64,000 bases of DNA, from positions 42,098,001 to 42,162,000 of the forward strand of contig OZ024751.1 of NCBI GenBank assembly GCA_964016885.1, in the 5' to 3' direction. The position numbers and the translations under genes are program-made. This DNA is from Eledone cirrhosa (taxonomy: Eukaryota). The notes below the pieces were generated by a model. It made no database searches. It saw only the letters and a program-made list of their open reading frames with translations, and was not told the origin of the DNA. Numbering within the stretch: the stretch's first letter is position 1; every line of letters begins with the position of its first letter. Positions 11,342-63,400 of the stretch are shown here, piece by piece.

Positions 11342-11360
11342 ATTTATATATATATATATT

Positions 11361-11391
<31 letters not shown>

Positions 11392-11418
11392 ATTTATATA
11401 TATATTTATATATATATT

Positions 11419-11449
<31 letters not shown>

Positions 11450-11520
11450 ATTTATATATATTTATATATATTATATTTATATATATATATATTTATATAT
11501 ATTATATTTATATATATTAT
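8090..11520. repeat. ~3.4-kb (TA)n-derived low-complexity satellite
   Basis: Almost purely A/T, with blocks of variant units (TATT, TAAT, TTTA, ATGT). Confidence 0.97.
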
Positions 11521-11992
11521 AGTTTTTTTTGTGTGAATGATGCTAAAATAAATTAATTTAAATTTAACAGAAATTATAATAGGATTTTAGGTGGAAGTTA
11601 TTGTTAAACGGTTTTATTTGCTTTTTTATTTATTGTTGTTGGTTGTTGTATTAGTGTAGATAGTTGTAGTAAAATAACCTATTATAAATGTGAATGACAT
11701 TTTCTTGCATTCCTCTGCATTTATCTAACTTTTGTATTTGTACTAATAATGAAAATCAAAACTGCAACAGAAAAGACTAAAACTCAGGAATCCAGTATTT
11801 AATCTCACTGACCCATTGTTCTAATCCCATAAAACCAAATATACATTTATCAGTCGTATATATTTCATCATTCAACCAGCATTTGGAAGAAATCTCTTCA
11901 CCTGCTTGACACTTTTGTTGCCATATTCCTTATGAAAGACACTTAAATTCAATTGATTTATGAAGAATTTGGAGAGATTTACTGAAATCATT

Positions 11993-23678: not shown

Positions 23679-23802
23679 TATATATATATATATATATAAT
23701 GTATGGTTGCTAGGATGCGTCCATAGGCAGTATGCCAGTTGAGCACTCTATGCTCCTACGAAGCAGAGTATGATAAAAGAGAATTTGCTTCGAAATCACT
23801 AG

Positions 23803-23895
23803 ACGTATCTGAGGAACTTGCGTATCTAGAGTCAGGTTTGATCCACAAACAGATCGCACCTCAAGCTGTTTGCTGGAGAAACAATTGTAATATGT
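23803..23895 (+). ncRNA. Putative type I hammerhead ribozyme with long stem II insert
   Basis: Stem I ACGTAT/ATATGT, core CTGAGGA at 23809, GAA-ACAATTGT-A (palindromic stem III, GUA cleavage after 23889). The base of stem II is degenerate. Confidence 0.65.
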
Positions 23896-24050
23896 AATAA
23901 ATTGAGTTCCGATGCATCACTAATTCTTCGTTTTCCATTTTATATATATATATATATATATAGTAATAATAACAAATTTGAAGACTAAAATCAAAAGAGG
24001 GCTCGATAACGATAAATATATATCAAATATATAAGAACTGTAGAGCAAAT

Positions 24051-24189
24051 ATTTATTAAAATAACAGATTAAAGTTTAAGCAAAGAATCGCTGCTTTCAC
24101 CCTTAACGGGATCTTCTGAAACTCAGAAGATCCCGTTAAGGGTGAAAGCAGCGATTCTTTGCTTAAACTTTAATCTGTTATTTTAATAA

Positions 24190-24191
<2 letters not shown>
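24051..24191. repeat. Perfect inverted repeat, 69-bp arms with 3-nt loop, inside a TA-flanked element (23962-24191)
   Basis: 24051-24119 is the exact reverse complement of 24123-24191 by eye. Confidence 0.92.
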
Positions 24192-24243
<52 letters not shown>

Positions 24244-24582: not shown

Positions 24583-24728
24583 TTATATATATATATATGC
24601 AAAAGTTCTATTTAAATTGTTGGGATACAACAAGCAAATATTTTTATAACTGATATAAAGCACTCGACAAGTATTTGGAGTAGATATACGATATTAATAA
24701 ATGGAAACTATATTTATAAAACCATATT

Positions 24729-24791
24729 TATTTCATTATATATTTCAAGGATACCAAGTCAAACTATGGTATGCCTTCATCAGACAAAATA
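24729..24791 (-). ncRNA. Putative type I hammerhead ribozyme (left arm)
   Basis: Minus strand: TATTTTGT-CTGATGA-AGGCATACCA...TGGTATCCTT-GAA-ATATAT-A-ATGAAATA. Confidence 0.65.
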
Positions 24792-25022
24792 CAATATATA
24801 ACAGTTTTATAAATAGACATTGACGTACCCTTTTAAAAAGTGACAGTTGCTTTTGGAGGCCATCAGGATAGTGGTTTGTTTACTTTAGTAAGTCATAGTG
24901 TTAAGAGTAAATAAACTATGACTTACTAAAGTAAACAAACCACTATCCTGATGGCCTCCAAAAGCAACAGTCACTTTTTAAAAGGGTACGTCAATGTCTA
25001 TTTATAAAACTGTTATATATTG

Positions 25023-25087
25023 TATTTTGTCTGATGAAGGCATACCATAGTTTGACTTGGTATCCTTGAAATATATATAATGAAATA
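25023..25087 (+). ncRNA. Putative type I hammerhead ribozyme (right arm)
   Basis: Stem I TATTTTGT/ATGAAATA (8 bp with two G-U), CTGATGA, stem II AGG(C)ATACCA/TGGTATCCT, GAA-ATATATAT-A. Confidence 0.72.
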
Positions 25088-25482
25088 AATATAGTTTCCA
25101 TTTATTAATATCGTATATATATATATATATATATCTTTTTCTGTTACTCAGATAGTATTAAAGTTGAATTAGGTTTAACTGTTTTGGTGTAATACAACTA
25201 CTACTGATACAACTGAATGAAAAATGAACATTTCTTAATCTGTTGTTCAGATGTTTTGAGACTGCGTTGTTTCAGACTCCTCTCTATGTGATAACTGATA
25301 ATCATGTATTGATAATATAGGTTACTGGTGATGTTTTTATTTATTAAATAACTGTTTGTCCAGAAACATTGCATCACTTCGTCTGTTTGTTATGCTGCTA
25401 CGGTTGAAAGTGTCCGACTTTCTGTAGAATCGGTCAAGGTGATTTTTGACAATCAACATCGCATTATTTTAATTTTCTTTTC

Positions 25483-28400
25483 TGGGCGGTGTATTGGCAT
25501 AGGCGGTGTATTGGCTAGGGTGGTGGATTGGCATAGGTGGTGTATTGGCATAGGGCGGTGTATTGGCATAGGGTGGTGTATTGGCTAGGGCGGTGTATTG
25601 GCATAGGGCGGTGGATTGGCATAGGTGGTGTATTGGCATAGGGCGGTGGATTGGCTAGGGCGGTGTATTGGCATAGGTGGTGTATTGGCTAGGGCGGTGT
25701 ATTGGCATAGGTGGTGTATTGGCATAGGTGGTGTATTGGCTAGGGTGGTGTATTGGCATAGGTGGTGTATTGGCATAGGGCGGTGGATTGGCATAGGGCG
25801 GTGTATTGGCTAGGGCGGTGTATTGGCTAGGGCGGTGTATTGGCATAGGTGGTGGATTGGCATAGGTGGTGTATTGGCATAGGGCGGTGGATTGGCTAGG
25901 GTGGTGGATTGGCATAGGTGGTGGATTGGCATAGGTGGTGTATTGGCATAGGGCGGTGGATTGGCTAGGGCGGTGGATTGGCTAGGGCGGTGTATTGGCT
26001 AGGGCGGTGTATTGGCTAGGGCGGTGTATTGGCATAGGTGGTGGATTGGCTAGGGTGGTGGATTGGCATAGGGCGGTGTATTGGCATAGGCGGTGTATTG
26101 GCTAGGGTGGTGGATTGGCATAGGGCGGTGTATTGGCATAGGTGGTGTATTGGCATAGGTGGTGGATTGGCTAGGGTGGTGGATTGGCATAGGGCGGTGT
26201 ATTGGCTAGGGCGGTGTATTGGCTAGGGCGGTGTATTGGCATAGGTGGTGGATTGGCATAGGGCGGTGTATTGGCATAGGTGGTGTATTGGCATAGGCGG
26301 TGTATTGGCTAGGGTGGTGTATTGGCATAGGTGGTGGATTGGCATAGGTGGTGTATTGGCATAGGGCGGTGTATTGGCTAGGGTGGTGTATTGGCATAGG
26401 TGGTGGATTGGCATAGGTGGTGTATTGGCATAGGTGGTGTATTGGCATAGGGCGGTGTATTGGCTAGGGCGGTGTATTGGCTAGGGTGGTGTATTGGCAT
26501 AGGTGGTGGATTGGCATAGGTGGTGTATTGGCATAGGGCGGTGTATTGGCTAGGGCGGTGTATTGGCTAGGGCGGTGTATTGGCATAGGTGGTGGATTGG
26601 CATAGGTGGTGTATTGGCATAGGGCGGTGTATTGGCTAGGGTGGTGTATTGGCATAGGTGGTGGATTGGCATAGGTGGTGTATTGGCATAGGTGGTGTAT
26701 TGGCATAGGGCGGTGTATTGGCTAGGGCGGTGTATTGGCTAGGGTGGTGTATTGGCATAGGTGGTGGATTGGCATAGGTGGTGTATTGGCATAGGGCGGT
26801 GTATTGGCTAGGGTGGTGTATTGGCATAGGTGGTGGATTGGCATAGGTGGTGTATTGGCATAGGTGGTGTATTGGCATAGGGCGGTGTATTGGCTAGGGC
26901 GGTGTATTGGCTAGGGTGGTGTATTGGCATAGGTGGTGGATTGGCATAGGTGGTGTATTGGCATAGGGCGGTGTATTGGCTAGGGCGGTGTATTGGCTAG
27001 GGCGGTGTATTGGCATAGGTGGTGGATTGGCATAGGTGGTGTATTGGCTAGGGCGGTGTATTGGCATAGGTGGTGTATTGGCATAGGCGGTGTATTGGCT
27101 AGGGTGGTGTATTGGCATAGGTGGTGTATTGGCATAGGTGGTGTATTGGCATAGGCGGTGTATTGGCTAGGGTGGTGTATTGGCATAGGTGGTGTATTGG
27201 CATAGGTGGTGTATTGGCATAGGCGGTGTATTGGCTAGGGTGGTGGATTGGCATAGGGCGGTGTATTGGCTAGGGCGGTGTATTGGCTAGGGTGGTGGAT
27301 TGGCATAGGGTGGTGTATTGGCTAGGGTGGTGGATTGGCATAGGGTGGTGTATTGGCTAGGGTGGTGGATTGGCATAGGGTGGTGTATTGGCTAGGGTGG
27401 TGTATTGGCTAGGGCGGTGTATTGGCATAGGGTGGTGTATTGGCTAGGGTGGTGGATTGGCATAGGGCGGTGTATTGGCTAGGGTGGTGGATTGGCATAG
27501 GGTGGTGTATTGGCTAGGGTGGTGGATTGGCATAGGGCGGTGTATTGGCTAGGGCGGTGTATTGGCTAGGGTGGTGGATTGGCATAGGGTGGTGTATTGG
27601 CTAGGGTGGTGGATTGGCATAGGGTGGTGTATTGGCTAGGGTGGTGTATTGGCTAGGGTGGTGGATTGGCATAGGGTGGTGTATTGGCTAGGGTGGTGTA
27701 TTGGCTAGGGTGGTGTATTGGCTAGGGCGGTGTATTGGCTAGGGCGGTGTATTGGCTAGGGCGGTGTATTGGCTAGGGTGGTGGATTGGCATAGGGCGGT
27801 GTATTGGCTAGGGTGGTGGATTGGCATAGGGTGGTGTATTGGCTAGGGTGGTGGATTGGCATAGGGCGGTGTATTGGCTAGGGCGGTGTATTGGCTAGGG
27901 TGGTGGATTGGCATAGGGTGGTGTATTGGCTAGGGTGGTGGATTGGCATAGGGTGGTGTATTGGCTAGGGTGGTGGATTGGCATAGGGTGGTGTATTGGC
28001 TAGGGTGGTGGATTGGCATAGGGTGGTGGATTGGCATAGGGCGGTGTATTGGCTAGGGTGGTGGATTGGCATAGGGTGGTGTATTGGCTAGGGCGGTGTA
28101 TTGGCTAGGGCGGTGTATTGGCTAGGGCGGTGTATTGGCATAGGGCGGTGTATTGGCTAGGGCGGTGTATTGGCTAGGGCGGTGTATTGGCATAGGTGGT
28201 GTATTGGCTAGGGCGGTGTATTGGCTAGGGCGGTGTATTGGCTAGGGCGGTGTATTGGCTAGGGCGGTGTATTGGCTAGGGTGGTGTATTGGCATAGGTG
28301 GTGTATTGGCTAGGGCGGTGTATTGGCTAGGGTGGTGTATTGGCATAGGGCGGTGTATTGGTTAGGGTGGTGTATTGGCTAGGGCGGTGTATTGGCTAGG

Positions 28401-28790
28401 GCGGTGTATTGGCTAGGGTGGTGTATTGGCATAGGTGGTGTATTGGCTAGGGCGGTGTATTGGCTAGGGTGGTGTATTGGCTAGGGTGGTGTATTGGCAT
28501 AGGGCGGTGTATTGGCTAGGGCGGTGTATTGGCTAGGGTGGTGTATTGGCTAGGGCGGTGTATTGGCTAGGGCGGTGTATTGGCTAGGGCGGTGTATTGG
28601 CATAGGGTGGTGTATTGGCTAGGGTGGTGTATTGGCTAGGGCGGTGTATTGGCATAGGTGGTGTATTGGCTAGGGCGGTGTATTGGCATAGGGCGGTGTA
28701 TTGGCTAGGGTGGTGTATTGGCTAGGGCGGTGTATTGGCTAGGGCGGTGTATTGGCTAGGGCGGTGTATTGGCTAGGGCGGTGTATTGGC
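25483..28790. repeat. ~3.3-kb G-rich 21/22-bp minisatellite (GGYGGTGKATTGGC(A)TAG(G))n
   Basis: Roughly 150 directly visible units. Confidence 0.97.
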
Positions 28791-35097: not shown

Positions 35098-35135
<38 letters not shown>

Positions 35136-35136
<1 letters not shown>

Positions 35137-35520
35137 AATAAAATAAAAAAAGGACGAGTGGTTACTCCTTCATTTTGTTTATTGGTTGGGGACGCGCGTT
35201 TCGCTATTGATCAGCTCGTTTGATCTGTATCGATCTAGCCTGACTCTGTAATCAATGGCTCGTCAGACCTCTGTGGTTGTAATGACAGAATGAATATACA
35301 TGGCGTACAGAGTCAGGCTAGATCGATATAGATCGAACTTTCAGCTAATCAATAGCGAAACAGGTCACCAACCAATAAACGTAATGAAGGAGTAACCACT
35401 CGTCTTTGTTTTATTTTATTATACTACACTCTGTCTAGCTCTACGCCTCGATACCGACGTGACCCTAAACATCGAGTGTTCACCCGGATGAACTTACAGT
35501 AACCCAGAGTTACACTCCCT

Positions 35521-35522
<2 letters not shown>
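35136..35522 (+). mobile_element. TA-embedded inverted-arm + tail element with hammerhead (family shared with 42670-43046 and 38725-38857)
   Basis: Arms ~35136-35250 and ~35306-35421, then a ~100-bp tail ending GTTACACTCCCTG-(TA)n. Confidence 0.85.
35188..35269 (-). ncRNA. Putative type I hammerhead ribozyme
   Basis: Minus strand: GGT-CTGACGA-GCCATTGAT...ATCAATAGC-GAA-ACGCGCGT-C-CCC; palindromic stem III and GUC site. Confidence 0.75.
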
Positions 35523-35562
<40 letters not shown>

Positions 35563-36885
35563 ATATATATATGGAGTTTTTGGTTTTCTTATAAAACCAA
35601 AGTTCAAAAAGACAAGATCAAATAGAATATTATTTAATAGTGTCAGCAAAAGGCCTTGTGGTATTTGTTCAGAGCTTTTATGTTCAAATCCAGCTGAAGT
35701 CCACTTCACCTTTCATCATTCCAGGGTCAATAAAATAAAATACCAGTCATATTCTGGGGTTGATTTAATCAACTTTGTCCTTCCTTCTCCTAAATCATGG
35801 CCTTCAGCTTATGTTGGAAACAAGTATTTTTAAATATGGAATAACAAGAATGGTGGAAGGATGAATTAAATGTCTTTGCCCTTTAGTTTAAATCCATCTG
35901 GGGTTGATAAACTAAGGACTGTGTTTAATTTACCCTTTTTGTGTACCATATTTTGCCTACTCTCAGGTCCCAAATAATAGGGGGGAGGGTGATTATTCAA
36001 GACCTGAGAGTACTTGTATCAATTAATTTTGTAAATTTGAAGAATGTAATGAGATAGCTCAGCTTTTCATTAGTAAGCTGTTATTTAAAATATTACTTAG
36101 CAAAAATTTCTTAAATAAAATCATGATGGAAAGGTTTTGATATAAATATGAACATTTTGAAATGACCAGTTTTTTGTAATAAAACCAGTCGGCTTTTCAG
36201 GCAGGTTGGTATTAAAAGGGTTAAAGTAATTATGGTTATCCACAAAAATGTGGTTTTCTGCCTGTTAGCATCATTATCATCTTTTATTTATTTGAAGAAT
36301 TTCAACAATGCTTTTTATCTCAATACAAAACTATACTCAAATATACTCACACACATTGAATTTTAACCCTTTCGTTACCAACCTGGCCAAAACCGGCTCC
36401 TTCTATGAAATAAAACAACCTATTTTAAAGGTTTCCAATTTAAAATAAAATCTTCCAACATAATTTTATATAAGAACCTTACATTAAGTTACTATCTTAG
36501 TAGTGAAATAATTTATAATTTTAGTAAATTCCTTGAAATTGTTCATTAATTAATTAAAATACAGTGTATTTCATTAGAAATACAGTCATGTTATGCCTCT
36601 TTCTTTGGGAAAAATACAGTTTTCCTTTTCCTAACATGAAACTAAAACAGTAAAATTTAAATTAGGATTAACAAATAATCTATGTAAATCTGTCATGAAG
36701 CTTTTCTTTCTTTTCTCCCTTTTTATTAAAATTCCAATTTTTATGATTTTTTTTTTTTTGTGTATATTTTAAAATTGCTTTACACATCACTTCCTCTGTT
36801 TCCTTCAAATTTGTGGGTAAATGTAAAACTCAGTATGATATTTGGTATGCATTTAGCTACTATAGTGTGAATTGGATGATAAATG

Positions 36886-37102
36886 TTAAAAATATAACAA
36901 TGATGTTGGGATGTTACCTTACAGTTTATAGGTTCTTATATTTCGGGGTAAAATCCCTTCATCAAGAGATTAATAAAAGAAACTAGTTCAGATATGTATA
37001 ATTATATTTTTTTGTTGCTCTTAAGCTGGGATTTTATTCTGAAATATAAGGATCTATAAAGAACTCCAAAGTAACACAGCAACATCATTGTTATATTTTT
37101 AA
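36886..37102. mobile_element. Degenerate fold-back element with hammerhead-like remnant
   Basis: TTAAAAATATAACAATGATGTTG/CAACATCATTGTTATATTTTTAA arms; minus strand TCT-CTTGATGA-AGGGATTTTACCCC-GAA-ATAT-A-AGA. Confidence 0.6.
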
Positions 37103-38301
37103 TGTTTCAAACAAAACATTATTTTTTACACTCTACGCAATGCTTCAAACTAACTACAGCACTTTTTTATTCCTCTGTAGATATTAAAACCTGGCCTTGG
37201 AACTGTTAGAGTAATTATGTGTGTGTATGTCACAGGCTGAGCAGTTTTAGTCCTAGGTTTTTAACCTCATTAGAACTGTCTTACCACAAACACATGCATC
37301 CCTCTAGTACTTTCTTTTAACTCTTTAATGTCCTATACCACATGAAACAGCAAATTTAATTTACTGCAAATTTTGACAATCTGTCCACCAGTAAAGATGC
37401 TATAAATATTTGAATTAACAAACCACATTAGTAAGGCATAATTGAAAAATATAAAACAAAACTGGCTGCATCACATTAAAAATTAATGTCTGCAATTTAA
37501 TTTACTGCAAATTTTGACAACGATCTCTCTACTAGTAAAAATTAACTATAAACAAGTTAGTATGTGTTGAAACAGCGAGTGAGTTTGAAATTAGAAATAG
37601 AAGCTTTTGTCGTATTTGTTTTCCATTTCTCAGAGGGTTCAAAACCCCACTATCAGGCTAAAAATTTCTTTAGTAAAAAGAAAATATGTTGAAAGATTCT
37701 ATTTCTAGTTTTAACTATAAACATTTGAATTAACAAACCACGTTTTAAAACATTTTCTACTAAATTATTAGAGTTTTTAAGAGTGAATACAATAAACAAC
37801 TTTTACTAAAACTATGTGAAATATTTATTGACTTACATAAGAGAATAGTTTGCCAACAAAATGATGTAAGCTAATGATTTTTAATTTTAGCACAAGGCCA
37901 GAAATTTTTCATGAATTATTTCCTCATATAGATGGCAAATTGGTCAGAATCACTGGCATGTCGGTTAAAATGTGTTGCGGCATTCATTCCGATTCTCTGC
38001 ACTCTTTGAGTTCAAATCCCACCGAGGTTAACGTCCTTTCATCCTCTCAAGGTTGATAACAAAAAAAAAAAATAGCAGTCCAGTACTGAGGTCGATTCTT
38101 CCTCTCTCTATCTCCTCTCTTTTGCCTCTTTCTTTATTTCCTCTCTCTCTTGTCTCTTGTGAAGAAATCAGCTGTTCAAACCTGAAGAACGAAATATACT
38201 CTACCAGGTTTAAAATCTCCCAAGAGATACCATATGTCAAAATGGTGCCCACTACAACTCTACCAGGAGTTACAGCTCCATACATACATTGTTTTCTCAT
38301 T

Positions 38302-38476
38302 AATCTCTTACACATGTGTATCAATTCTCTTACACATGGGTATCAATTCTCTTACACATGTGTATCAATTCTCTTACACATGTGTATCAATTCTCTTACA
38401 CATGTGTATCAATTCTCTTACACATGTGTATCAATTCTCTTACACATGTGTATCAATTCTCTTACACATGTGTATC
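38302..38476. repeat. 22-bp minisatellite (TATCAATTCTCTTACACATGTG)n
   Basis: About 8 visible units. Confidence 0.93.
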
Positions 38477-38761
38477 ATATATTTATATGTTTTTAGATGG
38501 AGGAATAAATTTTAAAGAACTTAGTCTTAGCTATTTATGCTTTTTGTGTACATGTGTACACTCACATTTGTGTGTATATATGAATATAATATACATATAT
38601 GATAATAAACATCTACACATTTAATTATATATTAAATTGCTTATATATATATAATGTGTGTGTGCGCATGTGTTTATATATATATATATAAACACGCATG
38701 CATGCATACGCATATATATAAGTATGGACGAGGTGTCAAATTTTCATTACATTTTATCAGG

Positions 38762-38844
38762 TGTGACGTGCGTTTCATGATTGATCAGCTCAAGGTTTGA
38801 TCTGTATTGATCAAGCCTGACTCTGGACTCAAGCTCATCAGACT
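38762..38844 (-). ncRNA. Degenerate hammerhead, single-arm copy of the 35136/42670 family
   Basis: Minus strand: GT-CTGATGA-...AGAGTCAGGCTTGATC...GCTGATCAATCAT-GAA-ACGCACGT-C-AC; TA tracts on both sides. Confidence 0.55.
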
Positions 38845-39969
38845 TCTGTTAGTGCAATATATATATATATATATGTGTGTGTGTATATATTTTTTTTTAT
38901 TCCCCACCCCACCAAAAATTGATGTTAATTTGTTTAACAGTTCATTGCTATAATGACCATCTCTGCAATATTTCATGATAATCCATAATTATTGTTGTTA
39001 TTATTTCTCATCATAGTAAATATTTTGAGAGAGAGAGAAAGAACAAGTAAAATGGTTTTGTCTGAGTTGTGCCATTAGAATTGGTTTGATTAGTAGAACC
39101 TCTTTGTATTAAATATTGCCAAAACACATTCTGTAAAATGATGATGATGATGTATATGTATAAAAAAAATAAAAAAAACAACAGAAACCAAAGTTTTCTT
39201 TACATGCAAAAATTATTATTATTATTTATTTTTTTATTTATTCCTTTAGATATGTAAATTTTGGCCACAAAAACAATTTAACATGAACCCTGTGTGCCAA
39301 TAAATTGTTTGGTTATTCTAAGTATAGTTTTGAAAAAATTCAAGTTTATTTTCAAGGTACAATTTTTCTTTCCACTTTATATTCTAAACATGATTTTATT
39401 TTTAATTTAAAAAAAAAATTTTTTTAGTATTCTATTGAATCTTTCTGAGTTTTTTTTAATCTTTTTTATTTATTCATTTTTTAATTGAATTTTTTAAAAA
39501 TAATTTCTCATATAATTTTGCATTTAAAATTCTGTTCACTCACAACACGCAAAAAAAAAAAAAATTATCAAAAATTAAACAATATGCTCATGATCTTGAT
39601 TAATCATTCAAATAGTCAAACTCTCAAAATTGAGATTTTTCTTTAAACTTCGAAAAAGAAAAAAAAAAAAAATTTGTTTTTCTTTTGTTTTTTTCCTTAA
39701 CCACTAATTTGAAGCTCTAGACAATGTTAAACAAAGCACCTGAACTACCTGTTACCTGTTTCTTCATTGTCATCACTGAAGGTATACTTGTTATTTGGAG
39801 ACAGTCTTGGGATATTATGATTATCTACTAAAATTAGAAATACAATTTCACACTTGTTTCTTCTATGTAAAATGCTTTCCCTATTTCTTTGTTAATCTTC
39901 TTCAGCATGTATTAAACAAGTTAAGAAATTTTATACAAATGTTGTTACTTCCTTCTTTTCCTTTCCTTC

Positions 39970-40008
<39 letters not shown>

Positions 40009-40236
40009 TGGTCAATATCCACACATCACTCAAAGGGTCCAAGAAGACTCTTCAGTTTTGTCAAGGACATGACAACATTTATAGTACTGGTGCACCTAGT
40101 ACACTCAGTAAACATGGTTGATGTTTTAGCAAGTACATCCAGCTGTACAAACTATGCCAAAAACAAAATGTATTTAAACAAATAAGGGTGTTGATTACTC
40201 TAACCTGTAAACAAACTCCTTAGAAAATACCATAAA

Positions 40237-40454
40237 CCCTTTAGCATTTAAACTGGCCGTATCCGGCCAGAATTCTCTCACCTCTTTCTGTTCAAAGCGG
40301 CCGTAACTGGCCATTCATATTGATATTAAGGTATTGTTCCCAAAATAAATATCAAAATCTCGTAGATTCAATATTATGTGAGATAATTATGTAAGGTAAA
40401 GACTTTACTATGAAAATACAATAGTAAATATAGAGTAATGTGAATGCTAAAGGG
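40237..40454 (+). mobile_element. MITE family 1
   Basis: TIRs CCCTTTAGCATT/AATGCTAAAGGG-TTAA. Confidence 0.85.
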
Positions 40455-40568
40455 TTAAACCAACTACTGCCCTGTACTCATAATTTCCATTATTAACCTA
40501 AATATCTGTCGGTTGTGTTGGTGACATGACGAACAAAAAGTTTCCAGTTCACACTAAATGTCGGCGCG

Positions 40569-40778
40569 AGGAAGGGCATTCAGCTCTAGAAACTAAGCCA
40601 CAAACAGTTTTGTCAGTGCTAGGAAGGGCATTCAGCTCTAGAAACCAAGCCACAAATAGTTTTGTCAGCGCTAGTAAGGGCGTTCAGTTCTAGAAACCAA
40701 GCCGCAAACAGTTTTGTCAGCGCTAGGAAGGGCGTTCAGCTCTAGAAACCAAGCCACAAACAGTTATGTCAGCGCTAG
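40569..40778 (+). repeat. 52-bp tandem repeat derived from the SINE/LINE 3' module (AGGAAGGGCATTCAGCTCTAGAAACC...)
   Basis: Four units; a fifth resumes at 41204 after the inserted SINE. Confidence 0.85.
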
Positions 40779-41203
40779 GGAGGCGCATGACTTAGTGGTT
40801 AGAGCATTGGGCTTGCAATCGAAAGGTTGTGAGTTCAATTCTCAGACCGGGTGATGTGTTGTTTCCTTGAGCAAGACGCTTTATTTCACATTGCTCCAGT
40901 TTACTCAGCTGTAGAAATGAGATGATAGGGACTGGGGTCCCTATCATTCCACTGCAAAGTGGTCGTGGAGGTGCCACGGCAAAAAAGCACTCAGCCCACA
41001 CTGTAAAGTGGACGTGTAGGCGCCACGGAAAAGCACCCAGCATGCACTGTAAATGAGGTTGGTGTTAGGAAGGGCATCCAGCTGTAGAAATCAGGCCAGA
41101 ATCAGTTCCCGTATGAACAAGAAAAGGTCAGCTGACCGGACACTGCCCACAACAGGACAATAGTCCAACCCATGCAAGCAGGGTAAAGCGGACGTATGAT
41201 GAT
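40779..41203 (+). mobile_element. SINE family B, long form
   Basis: Homologous to 24244, with extra internal segments that are also present at 59880-60150. Confidence 0.9.
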
Positions 41204-41892
41204 AGGAAGGGTGTTGAGCTCTAGAAACCAAGCCACAAATAGTTTTTGTATGAGCAACACAGATATCTGATCTGACTTATCTCAATTGGCCAACTTGTGT
41301 TGGTGAGGGGGAAAAACAGATATTAAATGATATCATCATTGTTTAACGTCTGTTTTTCCATGCATGGGTTTCATGAGTCATCCACATAATGAGAAGTTTG
41401 ACAGGTGTCCATGCAACCTTGCTCAAACAGAACTGTATTTTGGCTGTTTCTTTTTGTTGTTTTTTTTACAGTTGGATGCCCTTCTTAACACCAACCACGT
41501 TTACAGTGTGGAACTGGGTGGTTCTGTTATGAAGGGGCTCTGGTTGGTTGGTTGCGTCGTACCTTGCTGATGACGGAACCATATTTTGGGAGCTGGGAGG
41601 TCTGGCCAGCCAGCCATGCTGTACCTTGTTCATAGCAAGACCATGTATTAGCTGGATGCCCTGCCTAAACACTATGTTTACAGCCTGGGGCTGGGTGGTC
41701 CCATTACGAGGAATTTCAAGCCAGTTGGCCACATTGTACCTTGCTCATAGTGGGACCATGTTTTGCCTGAGCCTTTACAACTGCTGGATGCCCTTTCTAA
41801 CAAATGGTATATATTTATGGATGTGTATATATATATTCGGTATACAAAGAGGCAATTCACTTCTAGCACTCGATGTCATATTACTTCTTTAA

Positions 41893-42407
41893 CCCTTTCG
41901 CATTTACATCAGGGGTTCTCAACCTTTTTTTCACTGTGGACCACCTAAACTTTTAAATCTTTTGTAATAGAACTGTTACTTATAAGCAACAGTAGATGTT
42001 TTTTTCAATGAATTTAGAAAATGCTTTTATCATGTCGCAGTGCCTAAAAATCTACGCAAATAAACAGCTGAAGTCGTACTTATGCGAAGAATAAGAACAG
42101 CGCTTTAAGTCAAATGCATGGATCAAAAAAGAATTTGCTATTGAAAATTTTCTGTGGACCACTAGTGGTCCACATGGACCAGGTTGAGAACCACTGATTT
42201 ACATTACTCTATATTTAATATTGTATTTTCGCAGTAAAGGTTTCACCTCACATAATTATCTCACATAATATCGAATCTGAGATTTTGATATTATTTATTT
42301 TGAGAACAATACCTTAATGTTGGTATGAGTGGCTGGTTACAGCCAGTTTGAACAGGAAAAAGGGGACATAATTCTGGCCGGATATGGCCGGTTTAAATGC
42401 TAAAGGG
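41893..42407 (-). mobile_element. MITE family 1 (reverse orientation) interrupted by a hAT MITE
   Basis: TTAA on both sides; TIRs CCCTTTCGCATTT/AAATGCTAAAGGG. Confidence 0.85.
41910..42196. mobile_element. hAT MITE with perfect 8-bp TSD
   Basis: TIR CAGGGGTTCTCAACCT/AGGTTGAGAACCACTG; TSD ATTTACAT at 41902-41909 and 42197-42204. Confidence 0.92.
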
Positions 42408-42433
42408 TTAAAACAAGGATGACGGAGTATATT

Positions 42434-42627
42434 TATAAAGAGGAACATGCGAAGTTTTAGATGTTAGTCTTTTAATTAATTTAGCTGATATACGTATTTC
42501 CATAATTGCCTCAGAAATGTCACCTTTTACTCAGTTTTGTTGTCTGAAGAAATCACGATATCTATTGTCATGGAAATATGTATATCGGCTCAATTAATAA
42601 AAGACTCTTCGCATTTTCCTCTTTATA
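42434..42627. mobile_element. Degenerate fold-back element with hammerhead-like cores in both arms
   Basis: Imperfect arms; plus strand CTGAAGA(42544)...GAA-ATATGTAT-A; minus strand CTGAGG...GAA-ATACGTAT-A. Confidence 0.55.
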
Positions 42628-42631
42628 TATA

Positions 42632-42669
<38 letters not shown>

Positions 42670-42675
<6 letters not shown>

Positions 42676-43043
42676 AATAAAATAACAAGGACGATTGGTT
42701 TCTCCTTCGTTACATTTATTGGTTGGTGATGCGTGTTTCGCCACTGATCAGCTCAAGGTTCGATCTGACATGACTCTGTAATCCGCGGCTCATCAGACCC
42801 CTTGTAATAGTAATGGAAAAATGACGAACCGCGGATTACAGAGTCGGGTCAGATCGAACCTTGAGCTGATCAGTGGCGAAACGCGCGTCACCTACTAATA
42901 AACGTAATGAAGGAGTAACCAATCGTCCTTGTTATTTTATTTCACTATAATACACTCTGTCTAGCTCTACACCTCGACACTTAGTGAACCTAAACATTGA
43001 ATGCTCACCCAGGTGAACCTACAGTAACTCCAAGTTACACTCC

Positions 43044-43046
<3 letters not shown>
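42670..43046 (+). mobile_element. TA-embedded inverted-arm + tail element with hammerhead
   Basis: Arms ~42670-42795 and ~42822-42949, tail 42950-43046 homologous to 35422-35522, (TA)n on both sides. Confidence 0.88.
42725..42799 (-). ncRNA. Putative type I hammerhead ribozyme
   Basis: Minus strand: GGT-CTGATGA-GCCGCGGAT...ATCAGTGGC-GAA-ACACGCAT-C-ACC. The plus-strand arm keeps GAA-ACGCGCGT-C-ACC but starts ATGACGA (core C missing). Confidence 0.72.
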
Positions 43047-43090
<44 letters not shown>

Positions 43091-46104: not shown

Positions 46105-46176
46105 GGCTCGTTGGTCTAGGGGTATGATTCTCGCTTTGGGTGCGAGAGGTCCCGGGTTCGAATCCCGGACGAGCCC
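46105..46176 (+). tRNA. tRNA-Pro(TGG): tRNA-Pro, anticodon TGG
   Basis: 72-nt GGCTCGTTGGTCTAGGGGTATGATTCTCGCTTTGGGTGCGAGAGGTCCCGGGTTCGAATCCCGGACGAGCCC; canonical metazoan tRNA-Pro cloverleaf with TTTT shortly downstream. Confidence 0.97.
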
Positions 46177-47185: not shown

Positions 47186-49310
47186 TTAATAATAATAATA
47201 ATGAAATTATTGTGTAAAGTGCTCAGGTGCACTACAACTCGTCAATATAGTACATAGAATAATACACAAATGTCAGGGAAGTACATGTGTGTATGTGTTA
47301 GCTGTAGTGTTGGCGGATCTCGGGAAGCATGGAGGCCTTAAAGGATGCAGTGTCTCGACAGCTAACAACTGATGCAGGTAGTTTGTTCCATGCTTCAGCA
47401 ACTCTGAGCGTGAAAAAATGTTTCCGAAAGTCATGGGAACTGTGTTGTTTTCTTACTTTGTGGGCATGTCCACGTGTGTTAGACACATGGAAATCAAAAA
47501 GGTACTCAGGGTTGTTGTTGGCAACATGGTTAACAATTTTGTGGGTGTTTACCAAGTCAGTTGCCAGGCGTCGGAGCTTCAATGAATCCATGCCCAGGGA
47601 AGCAAGGCGCTCAGAGTATGGTAGATGCCTGATGGAGGGTATTCGCTTGGTTGCACGTCTCTGAACAGTTTCCAGGCGGTCAATGTCCTGAGCAAGATAG
47701 GGGTTCCAGACTGGTGATGTAAATTCTAAGTGTGGTCGCACCATAGCTGTATACAGCCTTAAATAGATATCTGGAGAGCGGCTGACAAAGGTCTTGCTGA
47801 GTGATGCTAAGACACCCTCGGCCCTCTTGACAATTTTAGAGACGTGCCTCGTCCAACGCAAATCGCTGCTGACCGTAATGCCCAGGTCACGTTCACAGGA
47901 AGACTTCTTGATATTAGTGCTGTGGAGGGAGTATGTGGACGCTGGGTTTTTACTCCCAAAATGCATGGTGGTGCACTTGTCCACAGCTAGCTTGAGTTGC
48001 CAGTCTGAGATCCATTGTTGCATTGTGTCCAGGTCAGACTGCAAGCAAGATCTATAGTGTTCAGGATCTGTCCTTTTTATCTCAAGGTACAGCCTGATGT
48101 CATCTGCGTACTTTAGTACTACTGTGGCATTCTTTAAGTTGGCATCTATGTCATTAATATATGCCACAAACAAAAGGGGGCCAAGAACAGATCCCTGTGG
48201 TACACCAGATGACATCTCATATGGTGAGGAATGCTGTCCCAGAACCGTGACTACCTCTCTTCGACTGAGAATGAAGGACTTCAACCAGTTAAAAAGATCA
48301 TCCTTCACACCCATTACAGAGAGTTTTGCCATAAGCCTTTTGTGTGACACAGAATTGAAGGCCTTCGCAAAGTCAAGGTAAACAACATCCACCCTTGAGC
48401 CGCCATCAGTGATCCGGGTGATGTCCTCAAGAAACTCTATAAGTTGATCACAGCAGCTGGAGTTGGGGATAAATCCAAATTGCGAGGGCCGGATAAGACT
48501 GTGAGAGCTCCAGAAGTTCCAAAGTGTTTCTCTGACACAGGATTCCATCAGTTTGGCGATGCAACTAGTAAGACTGACTGGACGATAGTTCACAGGTGAT
48601 GTGCGGTCACCCTTTTTGAACAGAGGAATGACACTGACAGTTTTCCACTGTTCTGGAGTAGCACTGTTGTTCAGACAGAATTGGAAGAAGCGTGATAACT
48701 GGTGTAGAAGGAAGTACCCACCACGTTTAAGAAGCAGGTACGTAACACCATCAAGACCAGGAGAGGCATGGTTGCGTTTATTTTTTAGGTGACGTCGCAG
48801 CATTGCAGGTGTAAATTCCATGGTTGTAATAGAGTCCGGTGTCATAGGTGGTGGAGATGGTACACTCTGGTCTTCAATAGTGAAAATGCCTGCATAGCAT
48901 TCAGCAATGAGCTCTGCGCATTCCTTGGGCTCGTCAGTAACCTGGCTTGTGTGGGGATTGCGAAGAGGACCAACTGGAGAGTGAGGCCTCTGCTTTGAGT
49001 GAACATACTTCCAGAACACCTTACTGTCAGGGCTGGTTGCTATGCGCTGCTCAAATTGAAGCACTGCCTTTTTTGTCACCTGTTTGAGGTGGTTGGACGA
49101 TCTATTTCGCCTCTTCCTATTAATGTCTGATTTGTGAAGTTTGTACTCACGTTCAGCATTGCGCCGTTCTTTTCTGGCAAGATGGACTGCTGCAGTCTCC
49201 CAAATTGCGCTTTTGGGATGTTTTTTCCGCTTACGTGGCACCGATGCTGCACATGCTGTCCATATTGAGCTCAGGATGTTCAGGAGTACAGTGTTGACAT
49301 CTCCAGAGTG
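47186..49310 (-). mobile_element. 5'-truncated CR1-group LINE
   Basis: RT ORF, short 3' UTR and (ATT)n tail at ~47186-47202; no APE domain present. Confidence 0.9.
47298..49241 (-). CDS. LINE ORF2 reverse transcriptase (uninterrupted, N-terminally truncated)
   Basis: SPGLDG, NYRPVSLTS, QFGF, YLDFAKAF, GVPQGSVLGPLLF, YADD, RPHLEF...WNP, RVAEAWNKLP. Confidence 0.93.
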   Translation of the reverse strand: MPRKRKKHPKSAIWETAAVHLARKERRNAEREYKLHKSDINRKRRNRSSNHLKQVTKKAVLQFEQRIATSPDSKVFWKYVHSKQRPHSPVGPLRNPHTSQVTDEPKECAELIAECYAGIFTIEDQSVPSPPPMTPDSITTMEFTPAMLRRHLKNKRNHASPGLDGVTYLLLKRGGYFLLHQLSRFFQFCLNNSATPEQWKTVSVIPLFKKGDRTSPVNYRPVSLTSCIAKLMESCVRETLWNFWSSHSLIRPSQFGFIPNSSCCDQLIEFLEDITRITDGGSRVDVVYLDFAKAFNSVSHKRLMAKLSVMGVKDDLFNWLKSFILSRREVVTVLGQHSSPYEMSSGVPQGSVLGPLLFVAYINDIDANLKNATVVLKYADDIRLYLEIKRTDPEHYRSCLQSDLDTMQQWISDWQLKLAVDKCTTMHFGSKNPASTYSLHSTNIKKSSCERDLGITVSSDLRWTRHVSKIVKRAEGVLASLSKTFVSRSPDIYLRLYTAMVRPHLEFTSPVWNPYLAQDIDRLETVQRRATKRIPSIRHLPYSERLASLGMDSLKLRRLATDLVNTHKIVNHVANNNPEYLFDFHVSNTRGHAHKVRKQHSSHDFRKHFFTLRVAEAWNKLPASVVSCRDTASFKASMLPEIRQHYS

Positions 49311-49439
49311 GGAGGTCGATTATTTTTCTATATCTCTTTTTTGTTTCCTCTGAAATAAACACCAAGCAGGGAGTATGGGATAATCTACTTTCGGGCGAAA
49401 CATTTAACTCTCTCTTTGATCATTCTGATCAATCTTCTA

Positions 49440-49680: not shown

Positions 49681-50189
49681 TGTGGTGTGATGTGCGACCG
49701 GTTGTGAATTGATGGTGTTTTTTTTTTTCTCCTTTTCTTTTTCTCTCGTTTTGATAATATATTTTTAATATATATAATTTTATTTCGTTGTATAATTAAC
49801 ATTACAAATTGTTTACAATTCTTTCAGAATGAAAAAATATATCATTGTTTATATTTTGATTCTGTAAGAACTGTGGGTATGGTGTGGCGTGCGGTGGCCG
49901 GGGACGGGGGGGGGGGGGGGGGGGTGCTCGACCGGAAGGGGTCTTTGACCGGAAGGATGCTCGACCGGAAGGGCCAGGATACGGTGAGGACGCGTTTTGG
50001 GCAGCTCCCGGTTTTAAGCAGTCGGACGCACGTGGAAGAGGAGTACCTGCAGCGGAATTTAGCGGCGCCTGTGAAAAGCGGTAAGTGAGATAGCCTTTTC
50101 TAACTACAAGCTATTTCGGCGACTGAAAAAAAAAAAAAAAAAGAAAACACTTGCCGCAAAACAAATCAAAAGATGGCGACAAACTACGG

Positions 50190-50915
50190 ATGAACGAAGC
50201 TATCAGGCCATTCACCGGTGAAGATGATGTTGTCGCTTGGCTGCGGAAGGTTCGGCTGGTCGCGGGCTTGCAGAAGATAGAAGACGTGGCCGGTCTCATT
50301 GCATTGTACCTCGAGGGCGACGCGTTGGTACTCTTCCTTGAGTTGGACGAGCACAGCCAAAGAGATGTGCAGAAGATTGAGAGGCGTCTGATGGATGCAT
50401 TCGCCGAGGGACCGTTGGCGGCTTTTGCTAAGCTGGCGAGAATCAGGTGGAATGGTGAGCGCGTCGACATTTTCGCAGCGGAAATAAGGCGGTTGGCTAT
50501 GTTGGCGGGTTACCAGGCAGAATGCGAACGCACGGTGCGGTTGGCATTCATCAATGGATTTCCGGACGACATAGCGGTGAAACTGCAGCAAGTCCCGGGG
50601 TACAAGAAGATGGAAATGCGTTCACTGGTGGAACAAGCCCGGATCATAGCGGAAGATGCCAAAAAAAGTGTCGCGGCGATAGCGACTACGGAGGCTCAGG
50701 ACACCTGGCAGCGAAATGGTCAAAGGGAGGCAACCTCGGCACGCGGCCGATCGCGAGAATTTAAGGGCCGCTGTTTTAGGTGTCAGGGGCCGCATATGGC
50801 TAGAGACTGTAGAGAGTCGAAGCCGGATATAATCTGCTACCGGTGTAAGCGACCAGGCCACATCGCTACTAACTGCGACCAGGGGAACTACTGCGCCGGT
50901 AGTTGCCCCTTATGA
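50190..50915 (+). CDS. gag: Gag with two zinc knuckles
   Basis: CFRCQGPHMARDC and CYRCKRPGHIATNC, followed by DQGN at the usual gag-pol frameshift position. Confidence 0.88.
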   Translation: MNEAIRPFTGEDDVVAWLRKVRLVAGLQKIEDVAGLIALYLEGDALVLFLELDEHSQRDVQKIERRLMDAFAEGPLAAFAKLARIRWNGERVDIFAAEIRRLAMLAGYQAECERTVRLAFINGFPDDIAVKLQQVPGYKKMEMRSLVEQARIIAEDAKKSVAAIATTEAQDTWQRNGQREATSARGRSREFKGRCFRCQGPHMARDCRESKPDIICYRCKRPGHIATNCDQGNYCAGSCPL

Positions 50916-53700
50916 GTAGCGGCGCTGCCGGTGGTGGAGGTCTTCGTGAGGGGGAAGCCACAGCGAGCCCTCGTGGATACGGGCTGTACGACGACACTGG
51001 TGACCGCGGGGGTGGCGCAGAGGTGGGGAGGGAAGAGCAGCGTAAGGGCAGTCGACGGCAGGAAAATTGAATGCCGAGGTCGCAGCGAGATGGAAATAGC
51101 GGTACGGGGAAGGACGATAAGGCTTTCCGCCATCGTGGTAGACAGTGTGGTGGATGGGATCGGCGTGGTTATGGGCATGGACGCGATTGGCCGTCTAGGG
51201 GGCGTCACGGTGAACAATGTCGGTGTGTCGTTTGGCGCCGCTGCATCGGTATGCGCTGTGAGTGCACGTCATGAGAACCAGAAGGCCCACGAGGGGCAAT
51301 ACCCCGCTTACACTGTAGAGGACAAGGACTTCAAGGCCGTGTTTGATGGGCAGCGATGGGTTGTTGAGTGGTACTGGAAGGGAGAACCACCAACACTGAA
51401 GACCAAAGTGGGCTGCTATCAACACACATTGAAGGGAAACGCTAGGGGCGAGAAGTAGAGAGATGGATCGAAGAGGGCATACTGCTTCCCTGGAAGGAGG
51501 AGGTGAAGTGCGGAGTATTGCCGTTGATGGCGGTGGTGCAACCCACGAAGAGCAAGGTGAGGCCGGTGCTGGACTATCGAGAGCTGAACGAGCACGTGTC
51601 ATGCCACACGGGTGGCGTGGTCACGGATGTCTGTGGGGAAACCCTGCGTGAGTGGAGACGCATGACGGGGGGTTCAGCGATCGTGGATCTAAAGTCGGCT
51701 TACTTGCAGTTGCATATAGATGAGAAGCTTTGGCGGTATCAGCTGGTTAGGTATAAGGGCCGGACATATTGCCTGACCAGGCTCGGTTTCGGGCTGAGCT
51801 CCGCACCGAAGATCATGGCGGCGGTCCTCAAGACCTAAAGAGGGCTACTAACTCCTACATTGACGACATCCTAGTGGACGAGTCGGTGGTGTCGACGGCG
51901 GAGGTCACGAGCCATTTGCGGAGGTATGGACTGACTGCGAAGCCATCAGAAGCATTGGAGGAGCCGCGCTGGGACTTAGGCTACGGCGAGATAAGACGGG
52001 CGTTTTGGTGTTCCAGAGGGTAAACGAAGTTCCGGAACTGGGCCCAAGTATGAATAGGCGGGAGCTTTTCTCGGTGTATGGAAAGCTGGTGGGTCACTAC
52101 CCGATCGCTGGGTGGCTCCGGACGGCATGCAGCTATGTCAAGAGACGAGCGGGAGGGGTGACTTGGAGTGACAGAGTGGGAGAGAGAACGGTGGCCATGA
52201 TGCAGGAGATCGTGGGGAGGGTGAAGGCCGACGACCCAGTGCGGGGACGCTGGTATGTTCCCAAATCACGGAGCGGGACCGTATGGTGCGATGCCAGCAG
52301 CATAGCGCTGGGTGTCACGTTGGAGATAGGAGGTGTTGAGGTCGAGGATGCAGCCTGGCTTAGAAAGAAGGACGACTGCAGCCACATCAATGTGGCCGAG
52401 CTGGACGCGGTGTTGAGAGGGGTGAACCTCGCCCTGCGGTGGGGGCTGCGCACCATCGAGATACGCACCGACTCGGCTACCGTACTCAGATGGGTAAGAT
52501 CAGTGCTCACCAGTGAGAAGAGAGTGCGAACGAGAGGCGCGGCGGAGATACTGATAAAGCGCCGCCTGGGAACGTTAGGAGAGCTGGCCACCGAGTTCGA
52601 CCTGAAGCTGAGCGTAGTGTTCGTGCCTTCAGAGAAAAATAGGGCGGACATCTTAACTAGAGTGAAGAAAGCCTGGATGGAAGCGCCGGAGGAGGTAGAG
52701 GATGAGATAGCTGCCGTGTGTCGGCTGACCGAGTTAGACCTGAAGGGGTTGCATGACATGCACCACATGGGGGTGGATAGGAGCCTGTTCCTAGCCAGGA
52801 GAATCGACTCGGACGTTAGCAGACACAGTGTTCGGGGGGTCGTTAGAGGCTGCGTCCGGTGTCAGTCCATTGATCCCGCCCCGGGTGTACACGAAACGGG
52901 AAGCCTCCCGGTGGATCGCGACTGGAAGCGATTAGCGGTGGATGTGACGCACTACCGGCAGGGAACGTACCTCTCGATGGTCGACTGTGGACCAGGTCGA
53001 GTGGCGATATGGAGGGAGATGAAGACCGGAACGGCCGAGGAAATCGTGCGGACGTTGAGAGAGGTGTTCTTGGAGCGGGGCCCTGTGGATGAACTGCTGA
53101 TGGACAACAGCGCAGCGTTCCGCTCGGAGGCACTGAGGGGGATGCTCGAGGGATGGAAGGTGGACTGTTTCTTCAGAGCGGCGCACAGGCCGAGCGGGAA
53201 TGGAATCGTGGAGCGACACCACCGGACGATCAAGGCAATGGCGGAGCGGGGCCATATCTCACCAATGGAGGCAGTGTTCTGGTACAATATGTCCCCTAGG
53301 GTTGGACAGGTCGAGGAATCGGTGCCACACAGAGCAGTATTCAAATACGAGTGGCGGCACCCGTGCACGCCACCACAACGGCCAGTGGGGAGAGAGAGTG
53401 CAGGTGGGCGAAGAAGTCTGGGTTAAGCCCCCAAATGCACGGTGCACATCTCAATGGGGAAGGGGAACGGTGACGGCCGTAAATTCAAAGAACAATGTGT
53501 CCGTGGACGGGGTACCACGTCATGTCCTGGATGTAAGAAGAATCACTGTATCGACGGACTCCGAGGAAGAGGAAACCCAAGATGAGGTGGAAACTCAGAG
53601 CCCTGCCCCAATACTACGAAGATCGCAACGAAGTCGTAGACCACCGACCTGGACGGCAGACTTTCATATGCAGAGGGACGAGGGGGAAATTGATCCTTGA
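50916..53700 (+). pseudogene. pol: Frameshifted pol (protease, RT, RNase H, integrase)
   Basis: LVDTGC; VDLKSAY, RLGFGLSSAP, YIDDIL; WCDAS; H..G...C..C, AVDV, MDN, NGIVER. Split over at least five frames. Confidence 0.9.
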
Positions 53701-56393: not shown

Positions 56394-56658
56394 AACATAA
56401 GTTAACAAAAGGTTATTTATATCAAATTATGTTGGTAGAATCGTTTAAGAATCCTTTATAATGGGTGTTTTGTCTCCAAGAGAGAACCAGGGGTGGTTTG
56501 GGGCTGTTTCGTATTGAAAGGGTTAAACTAAAATCTCGATACTTCAAACCCATGGTCATTGTGATTGTTTAAAGTATTGTTATTTTGTCAACAACAACTT
56601 TACTGAGTCTTAAACTTTCATTGTTTCTATTCTTGGTGCTGGTATTGGAGAAGCAAGT

Positions 56659-57067
56659 ATGAAGAGATCTGGCGAAGATATACCACATCCCCATTGGCTT
56701 GTAGAGAATCGTCTAAATTCGTTTCATAAGTGGACGAATCAACATGTATCAAAAGAGCGGGTAGCTGAGGCTGGATTTCTCTATACCGGAACAGACAGCA
56801 AAGTAAAATGTGCTTTCTGTTACTTAATAATTGATGAATGGCATGAAGGAGATGACCCATTCGAAAAACATCAACAATTGAATGCATTTTGTCCCTTTTT
56901 GAAAATTCAAGCCAGAAAAACTGCATCTGAGAACAATATAATCGTACATAAACCATATTATCCACAATACACTTCAAAAGCCACAAGAGAAGAAACATTT
57001 AAAAACTGGCCTCTAAATCAATATCCACCTCCTAAACTATTAATTGAATCTGGGTTCTATTATACGG
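56659..57067 (+). CDS. Inhibitor of apoptosis (IAP/BIRC) exon: complete BIR domain plus start of a second BIR
   Basis: RLNSF..W...AEAGFLYTG..KVKCAFC......W...DDPFEKH.....CPFL, then REETFKNWP...LIESGFYYTG; donor G|GTAAGC at 57067/57068 (phase 1). The ATG start is tentative. Confidence 0.93.
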
Positions 57068-57424
57068 GTAAGCAAACATTTCATTTACCTGTTAATTCAA
57101 CATATTTTAAATATATTATCATCATTATTATCCCCGTTGGAAACATCCATTTTTCTACTCTAGCATGAGATAAGCCAGGTCAGATGACCACATCTTTCTC
57201 ATACAGAACTGGTTTTGGCTTGGTTTCTACAGCAGGATCCCCATCTTAACGCCAACCACACATACAGGATGGATTGGGTACTTTTGTCATAACACCTACA
57301 TGACCACTTTTACAGTGTGGACTGTAGAGTGTGGCGTTACAGCTGATATATACCAACTGGACAGGGGTATAGAAACTTACATACAGCTGATATATACAAC
57401 CTAGACAGGGGTGTAGTCTGGTGT

Positions 57425-62800: not shown

Positions 62801-63400
62801 GTCCGTTAAAATCTCCTGCGATGATTAGGAAGTCATTGTCGTTTGTTAGAGCAGTAGTGTGCATTAGGGACTCGTAAAATCTATCCTTAAGTTCGTCTGG
62901 CAAACCCGATTGGGGTGCGTAAGCTGATATTGTGGTAATTGTTTTATTCAGGACTAGTCTGAGTTTAATGATTCTTGCATTTACCCTGTACACTGAGATT
63001 ACTTTATCTACCCACTTGTCAGCTAGTAGTATACCTACACCACCCATCCCATCGTCATTTCCCACCCAGAAAAATTTGTAGCACCGACTTTTTCCTACAA
63101 GGACTCTAGCAGACTCTCCTCTCCATCTAGTCTCTTGCACACAGCATACGTTAATTTCCTTTCGCTCTAGCATTTCTACGATTTCTCCTGCTCTTCCTTT
63201 CATTGTGCTTACATTGATGATACCAACTCGGAGTTTTGGGCATTTCTCATAGGGAAGGGTCGATTTTTGCAGGAGTGTGTGTGTGCTTCCTCTCTCTGGA
63301 TTGGCGCTTCACATGGGTGCTTGGTAGCTCGCGGATTCATATTCATTTCATCTATTAATTCAGAGTTGCTCCAATTTATTCTCAGCTCATCCATCCATAA
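59879..63400 (-). mobile_element. RTE-clade LINE, near full length, frameshifted; probably in an IAP intron, antisense
   Basis: APE domain (VQETRW, SAYAPQ, IAGDFNGHVG), RT (NYRGIKL, QFGF, FVDLEKAFD, HQGSVLSP, YADD), PHD-like finger, GRPKMTW C-terminus, (TGA)n tail at ~59879-59898. Confidence 0.92.

Follow-up and report, generated by a model that had tools for sequence, protein, structure and literature searches.

A 64,000-nucleotide stretch of the Eledone cirrhosa genome (assembly GCA_964016885.1, contig OZ024751.1, positions 42,098,001 to 42,162,000 of the forward strand; here called the window) contains three hammerhead-bearing elements, named copies A, B and C. Copies A and C are almost certainly 5'-truncated head-to-head insertions of a Penelope-like element (PLE). 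Comparison with further copies in the 3.0 Gb genome searched favours, by a modest degree, an origin in which one RNA is primed twice, from both nicked target strands, with run-off at the RNA 5' end. Positions within the element are counted from the hammerhead core, with C3 as 0, the predicted cut at +79, site 1 at +135 and the end of the tail (site 2) at +234. The arms consist of pseudo-long terminal repeat (pLTR) sequence, and an initiator-like (Inr-like) motif lies upstream of the core.

35136..35308, minus strand: inverted arm of copy A, pLTR from -42 to site 1 (+135), tail-less; templated extent determined via the long copy L079
35188..35269, minus strand: type I hammerhead layout in A, core C at 35266 and GUC at 35193-35191, with a 3-bp stem I (first pair broken), CUGACGA core, stem II of about 60 nt and palindromic stem III/loop
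35289..35293, minus strand: Inr-like TCATT in A, its A at -25 from the core; predicted transcription start region
35306..35522, plus strand: direct arm of copy A, truncated 5' within stem II and continuing through the tail to site 2
35420..35522, plus strand: tail of A, from site 1 to site 2
35523..35572, no strand: (TA)n target repeat at A, with a TA/TG repeat at 35098-35135 on the other side
38722..38858, minus strand: copy B, a tail-less solo arm from about -17 to its own site 1, CUGAUGA core at 38841
42672..42824, minus strand: inverted arm of copy C, from -28 (TCA of the Inr-like motif) to site 1
42725..42799, minus strand: type I hammerhead layout in C, core C at 42796, CUGAUGA core, AUC in place of GUC, 10-nt deletion in stem II
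42822..43046, plus strand: direct arm of copy C, cut at the core (+1); tail at 42946-43046
43047..43078, no strand: (TA)n target repeat at C, continued on the other side at 42644-42671

Copies A (35136-35522) and C (42672-43046) are 76% identical and can be aligned from end to end. They have in common a tail of about 101 nt (86/101 identical) with the terminal word TTACACTCCCTG, followed by (TA)n, and in both the tail is present only at the direct-arm side. This agrees with the first-pass annotation, which had described shared arms, a tail of about 100 bp, a direct arm cut in stem II at 35306 and at the core at 42822, and a single arm in B. All three copies had been assigned to one family, which is correct for A and C. 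The arm identity of B (102/133 to A and 91/126 to C, or 72-77%) is lower than that between A and C (113/140), and by its sequence B belongs to a sister family that has a tail and downstream sequence of its own. The arms overlap at the junction by 3 nt, TAC in A and TGA in C, and the 10-nt stem II deletion of C is identical in its inverted and direct arms.

The palindrome used as a query gave 4047 first-look candidates, of which 39 out of 40 scored were near full length with variable centres, while tail-only queries recovered solo, short-inverted and long-inverted copies. A 32-mer of the tail has 545 exact matches in the genome and its reversed control none. Walking upstream from a 920-bp inverted arm led to coding sequence for a reverse transcriptase (RT) and a GIY-YIG endonuclease, so that the longer copies anticipated by the first-pass annotation exist. 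The order in L151 is an inverted arm, a partial pLTR with tail, an ATG 47 nt further on, an open reading frame (ORF) of about 2.5 kb with breaks, a 3' region of about 1 kb, and again pLTR and tail; both L151 and L152 have the pLTR from a partial tandem, the tail and an inverted 5'-truncated copy. In full-length copies the tail runs on as 5' untranslated region into the ORF.

The long copies have a single ORF with RT and C-terminal GIY-YIG, with open frames of at most 890 amino acids at about 80% identity. The linker has CxCX5C, CCHH is lacking, CxxC and CxH are present, six long copies have DKT, and the position of the RWK motif reads RWR or CWR. In PMC8557442 the Hydra clade is defined by a C-terminal endonuclease without CCHH and by CxCX5C, CxxC/CxH near E/N, DKT and RWK. 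The N-terminal half of the ORF resembles Hydra-1_Obim when compared by eye (PMC8557442 supplement), so that motifs and this comparison fit a Hydra-type element. It is judged to be a family other than Hydra-1_Obim because the hammerhead sequences differ. Searches of Pfam, PDB and protein homologs gave the ORF no name and returned one unnamed match at 38%. Related families in the genome have 44-54% protein identity, and a breakpoint at -204 common to L202, L274 and L289 suggests an internally rearranged sub-lineage. A different PLE ORF with RT and GIY-YIG (712 amino acids open) was seen near a family copy at L156:7862-10000.

Start sites and junctions were mapped in a tail-selected sample of 90 copies out of the first 100, in genome order, listed among the 545 matches. 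The remaining 10 of these 100 are presumed segmental duplicates and were left out, as were L205 (the inverted match is a separate piece), L284 (a spurious alignment) and, from the 30 ORF-attached loci, the three without a tail. Inverted arms are present in 44 of the 90 copies, and five further copies have a very short one recognised by eye. The outer end of the inverted arm lies at +131 to +136 in 34 of the 44, about 100 nt before the tail end, and none of the 44 carries the tail; in other samples, copies with a tail at both ends occur occasionally (L057, L268 and L277). (TA)4 follows the tail in 85/90 copies, and with such flanks a target-site duplication is not delimitable. The right junction reads TGGATAT, matching the continuation of the template, in 53/90 copies. 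Both start sites sit at TA-like template words, CCCTGG/ATAT and TTTCAC/TATA. The variable truncation and constant tail of the first-pass annotation are borne out, but its variable inversion point, as in L1, gives way to two fixed 3' starts and two arms truncated independently.

Junctions are nearly unique. Only two pairs among the 44 inverted copies lie within 2 nt of each other on both arms, and these differ in junction sequence; comparison of the ends gave 5-6 matching positions out of 25 nt, that is, no terminal inverted repeats. The alignment of copies therefore does not show the invariant junctions with Tc1/mariner-like terminal inverted repeats that had been named as the contrary outcome. 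The 5' ends of the two arms are uncorrelated (Spearman rho 0.05). The arms of one insertion are nevertheless related: they differ at 9.6% of sites compared with 14.1% in shuffled pairs, minor variants are common to both arms at 24.5% of variant sites compared with 5.4+-0.9% (300 shuffles, 69 pairs; a 4.5-fold difference), and the subfamily agrees between arms in 16/16 typed pairs. In 26/44 copies, A and C included, the 5' extent of the inverted arm exceeds that of the direct arm, which excludes simple fold-back of the direct cDNA for those copies. In 14/44 copies the arms do not or barely overlap, and these cluster at site 1. Direct 5' ends also pile up there (12/42 in +119 to +139 and none in +96 to +118, p=0.004), a pattern that blocking of the downstream primer by the upstream one would produce. 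Junction insertions of at least 6 nt are in excess (12/44 compared with 4% under a simulated blunt-join null), and small extra fold-backs are seen at some junctions (L032/L042). The junction shared by L032 and L042 was rejected as a recurrent event since their flanks are also shared, i.e. a segmental duplication, and other apparent long shared flanks were (TA)n artefacts. Microhomology-driven joining found no clear support above the blunt-join null.

A related but more distant family, D, with 3573 first-look candidates, is also represented in the window:

23695..23945, plus strand: family D copy, an inverted tail joined to a tail-less pLTR arm, with non-overlapping arms and the same long stem II

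Insertions of family D often take this form. In a sample from the site-1 side, 12 of 13 two-armed insertions combine one tailed and one tail-less end; the 13th was incompletely printed. The hammerhead of the window copy has a CUGAGGA core and a 6-bp stem I, with a downstream promoter element-like (DPE-like) AGACGT directly before the core.

The 5' ends of the arms accumulate some 30 nt upstream of the core, adjoining the Inr-like motif. Between -45 and -6, 25/36 direct and 15/16 inverted arms come to an end, whereas of the 11 arms that pass this barrier only 3 stop within the following 326 nt. Subfamily S2 shows a strong barrier (24 stop, 2 pass) and S1 a weak one (4 and 8, p=3.5e-4); in ORF-attached 5' pLTRs it is also weak (1/7). 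Because it depends on the template in this way, a structural block alone is unlikely. TCATT is found at -25/-26 in 57 of the 61 arms having a TCATT match and is present in S1, S2, A and B; the inverted arm of copy C ends on the motif. In Drosophila virilis, Penelope has an internal Inr/DPE promoter in the pLTR (PMC2377424). The barrier may therefore represent run-off at the 5' end of an RNA that starts in a pLTR promoter, as we infer from the positions of ends and motif. A 3' splice site upstream of the core was also considered, but the variable ends do not fit.

The preferred mechanism would begin with a GIY-YIG/RT protein that nicks both strands of a (TA)n target. Both 3' ends would prime reverse transcription on the same RNA, at site 2 (the tail end) and at site 1, about 100 nt upstream, each by pairing with the short TA-like word at its own start site. 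If the cDNA from site 2 halted at site 1, a tail-only arm would result, and if it displaced its way through site 1, overlapping arms like those of A and C would be formed. The cDNAs would run off a short RNA whose start lies in the pLTR promoter, at about -26 to -35, or would be arrested at the base of the ribozyme fold, and the two ends would then be joined, often with short insertions. Double priming of one RNA is our best reading, with slightly more in its favour than against it, and is carried by the anatomy of the element, its two fixed 3' ends, the flanking (TA)n, the independent 5' truncation and the private variants shared between arms.

Several points weigh against it. The transcription start is placed solely by an Inr-like word and the positions of arm ends, it is overrun by copy A (-42) and some others (-41, -55), and family D shows the barrier without TCATT (0/7). 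The shared arm variants could come from later gene conversion. Junction overlaps of at least 2 nt are found in 10/44 copies, compared with about 16% under the blunt-join null, and fold-back could account for 12/44 copies. The p-values were computed post hoc, and some of the copies may be non-independent. Pfam gave no RVT_1 or GIY-YIG match for four pieces of the family. In PMC11167929 the priming site is described as not homologous to the target, unlike the TA-word match found here.

Two separate RNAs, one for each strand, might instead be copied by a dimeric protein and the arms joined afterwards. The PLE protein PAc is a predicted dimer (PMC11167929), overlapping arms would need no strand displacement, the lack of correlation between arm 5' ends is accommodated, and one dominant source locus per cell could explain the shared variants. 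The strict pairing of site 1 with site 2 and the pile-up of direct ends at site 1, however, require an extra asymmetry, while both are expected from one RNA with both primers, and we consider two RNAs rather improbable. Palindromes are prone to deletion, and a later central deletion is a possible alternative source of the junction features. It is also part of a fold-back scenario, in which self-priming of one cDNA or antisense template gives the inverted arm and deletion then varies the junction. The 12/44 copies with a direct arm further 5' and the small fold-backs in L032/L042 suit this scenario, and a model of this kind was proposed for rotifer Penelopes (PMC3846280). It appears unlikely in that the inverted arm holds sequence missing from the direct arm in 26/44 copies, the 14/44 non-overlapping or barely overlapping arms cluster at site 1, which random central deletion would not yield, and family D shows the same in opposite polarity.

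The short copies might also form a non-autonomous lineage resembling short interspersed elements or retrozymes, mobilised in trans as short pLTR and tail RNAs that may be processed by the ribozyme or circular. In S2 the core is canonical and most arms are short, while S1 combines mutated cores with more long arms, and 19/34 mid-region ends lie beside the predicted cut. S2-type long copies exist, though, only one end lies exactly at +79, the excess at +74 to +92 is independent of the core, and no tandem monomer arrays were present among the copies inspected (no genome-wide array search was made). We give such a lineage little credence, although it is partly compatible with one doubly primed RNA as to the source of that RNA. 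A palindromic insertion of about 380 bp flanked by TA, with thousands of first-look candidates, also resembles a miniature inverted-repeat transposable element (MITE) inserted by cut-and-paste with TA target duplication. This reading has next to no probability and can be regarded as refuted: the copies run on into an RT ORF, solo and long copies have their ends in common, the internal structure is variable, junctions are nearly unique and terminal inverted repeats are absent. The first-pass preference for PLE-like target-primed reverse transcription over a MITE was well founded.

The inverted arms of A and C had been said to hold the complete hammerhead. The full-length type I layout is there, but with point defects, so the ribozymes are not intact. 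A has GUC/CCC, by which the first stem I pair is lost, and a 3-nt deletion in stem II; in B the stem II base is weakened. That base was also said to vary while staying paired, and 8/9 pairs are indeed kept in each copy, although only one position is clearly compensatory. The proposed three-helix structure is paired in 84.7% of cells (40 natural arms) compared with 22-36% in slid controls, a test inflated by related copies, and truly covarying positions number only one or two (the clearest C-G 20, U-A 15 and U-G 5 of 40). No hammerhead was called in an Rfam scan at E<=1, single-copy folding z-scores are only -0.1 to -1.5, and RNAalifold recovered only upper stem II, without a favourable covariation term.

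Among the 100 matches listed, 77 cores are canonical, 14 are U4C and 9 are U4C+A6U, the nine all linked to one upstream variant. As 23/100 listed cores are U4C, these lineages have been amplified with non-canonical cores, while changes of A6 give low hammerhead activity (PMC3088659). The canonical U4 of A itself may be due to CpG decay since 6/7 other A-type arms (alignment A1) read CCGACGA. As the origin of the canonical S2 core, CpG decay was ruled out, with about 7% per direction (14 TG and 13 CA of 188). The 19/34 mid-region ends lie at +74 to +90 (scan p=4e-4), beside the predicted cut; no sharp cleavage signature was found at +79, with one exact end in the mapped copies. The excess at +74 to +92 is alike with mutated (6/26) and canonical (12/62) cores, and a stall at the fold explains the ends at +74 to +90 as well as cleavage does. 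Cleavage appears dispensable for insertion. The non-canonical cores CCGACGA and CCGTCGA still fit a DPE at about +28 from the Inr-like motif. We offer only tentatively, as somewhat less probable than the opposite, that the core may serve as promoter or protein-binding scaffold and not as a catalyst, combined with programmed twin priming and a strong-stop-like run-off where pLTR transcription begins.

The Hydra-clade PLEs Hydra-1_Obim and Penelope-13_HM (Craig et al. 2021, PMC8557442) share with this element the C-terminal GIY-YIG without CCHH, CxCX5C, DKT, CxxC/CxH, (TA)n targets and a type I hammerhead near the 3' end, and an inverted 5'-truncated copy was noted for Penelope-13_HM. In contrast, the unit here is about 3.8 kb with a 3' region of about 1 kb (generally <3 kb in the clade), the tail is about 100 nt (30-40), stem II is about 60 nt (in the Hydra hammerheads listed there, stems are short and loops 3-10 nt) and RWR/CWR stands where the clade has RWK (PMC8557442). 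The Poseidon PLE PAc cuts and extends both strands in vitro at AT-rich targets, with two internal RT start sites bounding the tail and a hammerhead dispensable for insertion (Frangieh et al. 2024, PMC11167929). All this resembles the present element, but PAc is of a different clade, the parts of that study consulted do not explain how inverted arms form, and here both start sites have TA-like words that match the target. Minimal PLE hammerheads (Cervera and de la Pena 2014, PMC4209133) are likewise type I with short stem I, palindromic helix III and G10.1-C11.1, and pairs on opposite strands 100-700 bp apart were considered probable truncated PLEs; stem II is much longer here and conserved across three families, and U4C and U4C+A6U core variants are amplified. 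Animal non-LTR retrozymes (bioRxiv 10.64898/2026.07.22.740005) are also PLE-derived short non-coding units with a type I hammerhead but are defined by head-to-tail tandem units, whereas the copies here are solo or head-to-head.

Twin priming of L1 yields an inverted segment from two primers on one RNA. The class with non-overlapping arms matches this directly, while in the present element the second priming site is fixed and the arms usually overlap.

PLEs were already known to have an inverted 5'-truncated copy, a tail, a bias towards (TA)n and hammerheads in the pLTR, and the formation of inverted repeats and tails was named an open question (PMC8557442). Self-priming and other models were left undecided in PMC3846280, and our literature search, with most subscription journals outside its scope, found no twin-priming model for PLEs. 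The fixed second start, the shared arm variants, the longer inverted arms and the 5' pile-up are added here. As elements these are ordinary PLE stumps in decay, which Rfam misses and MITE finders would label wrongly. Their thousands of short copies provide statistical evidence in favour of two start sites being used as a pair on a single template. If true, the inverted repeats and one-sided tails of PLEs would be a single phenomenon, programmed twin priming, which can be addressed in the existing in vitro PLE system.

Other hammerhead-like features lie in the same window. A near-perfect palindrome at 24639-25113, in which each arm contains CTGATGA...GAAA and a 124-bp hairpin (24845-24968) forms the centre, is probably another hammerhead-bearing PLE family. 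In (TA)n at 24033-24193 there is a palindrome with arms similar to a short hammerhead of Hydra type that is cut at the core. Long inverted repeats at 40235-40445 and 42197-42409, 1.75-2 kb apart, are possibly the ends of a DNA transposon. By eye, an LTR retrotransposon in pieces was recognised at 50127-53426 from gag-, protease- and integrase-like open frames, and open frames for RT and endonuclease of the long interspersed element type were seen at 47298-49319 and 60777-63308 (minus strand). An open frame at 56614-57168, also found by eye, resembles BIR (inhibitor of apoptosis) repeats and is probably a host exon. The window further holds a tRNA gene at 46105-46176 (Rfam, 56.7 bits), a 3.4-kb (TA)n tract at 8091-11521 and a 3.3-kb satellite of G-rich 17-mers at 25484-28790.

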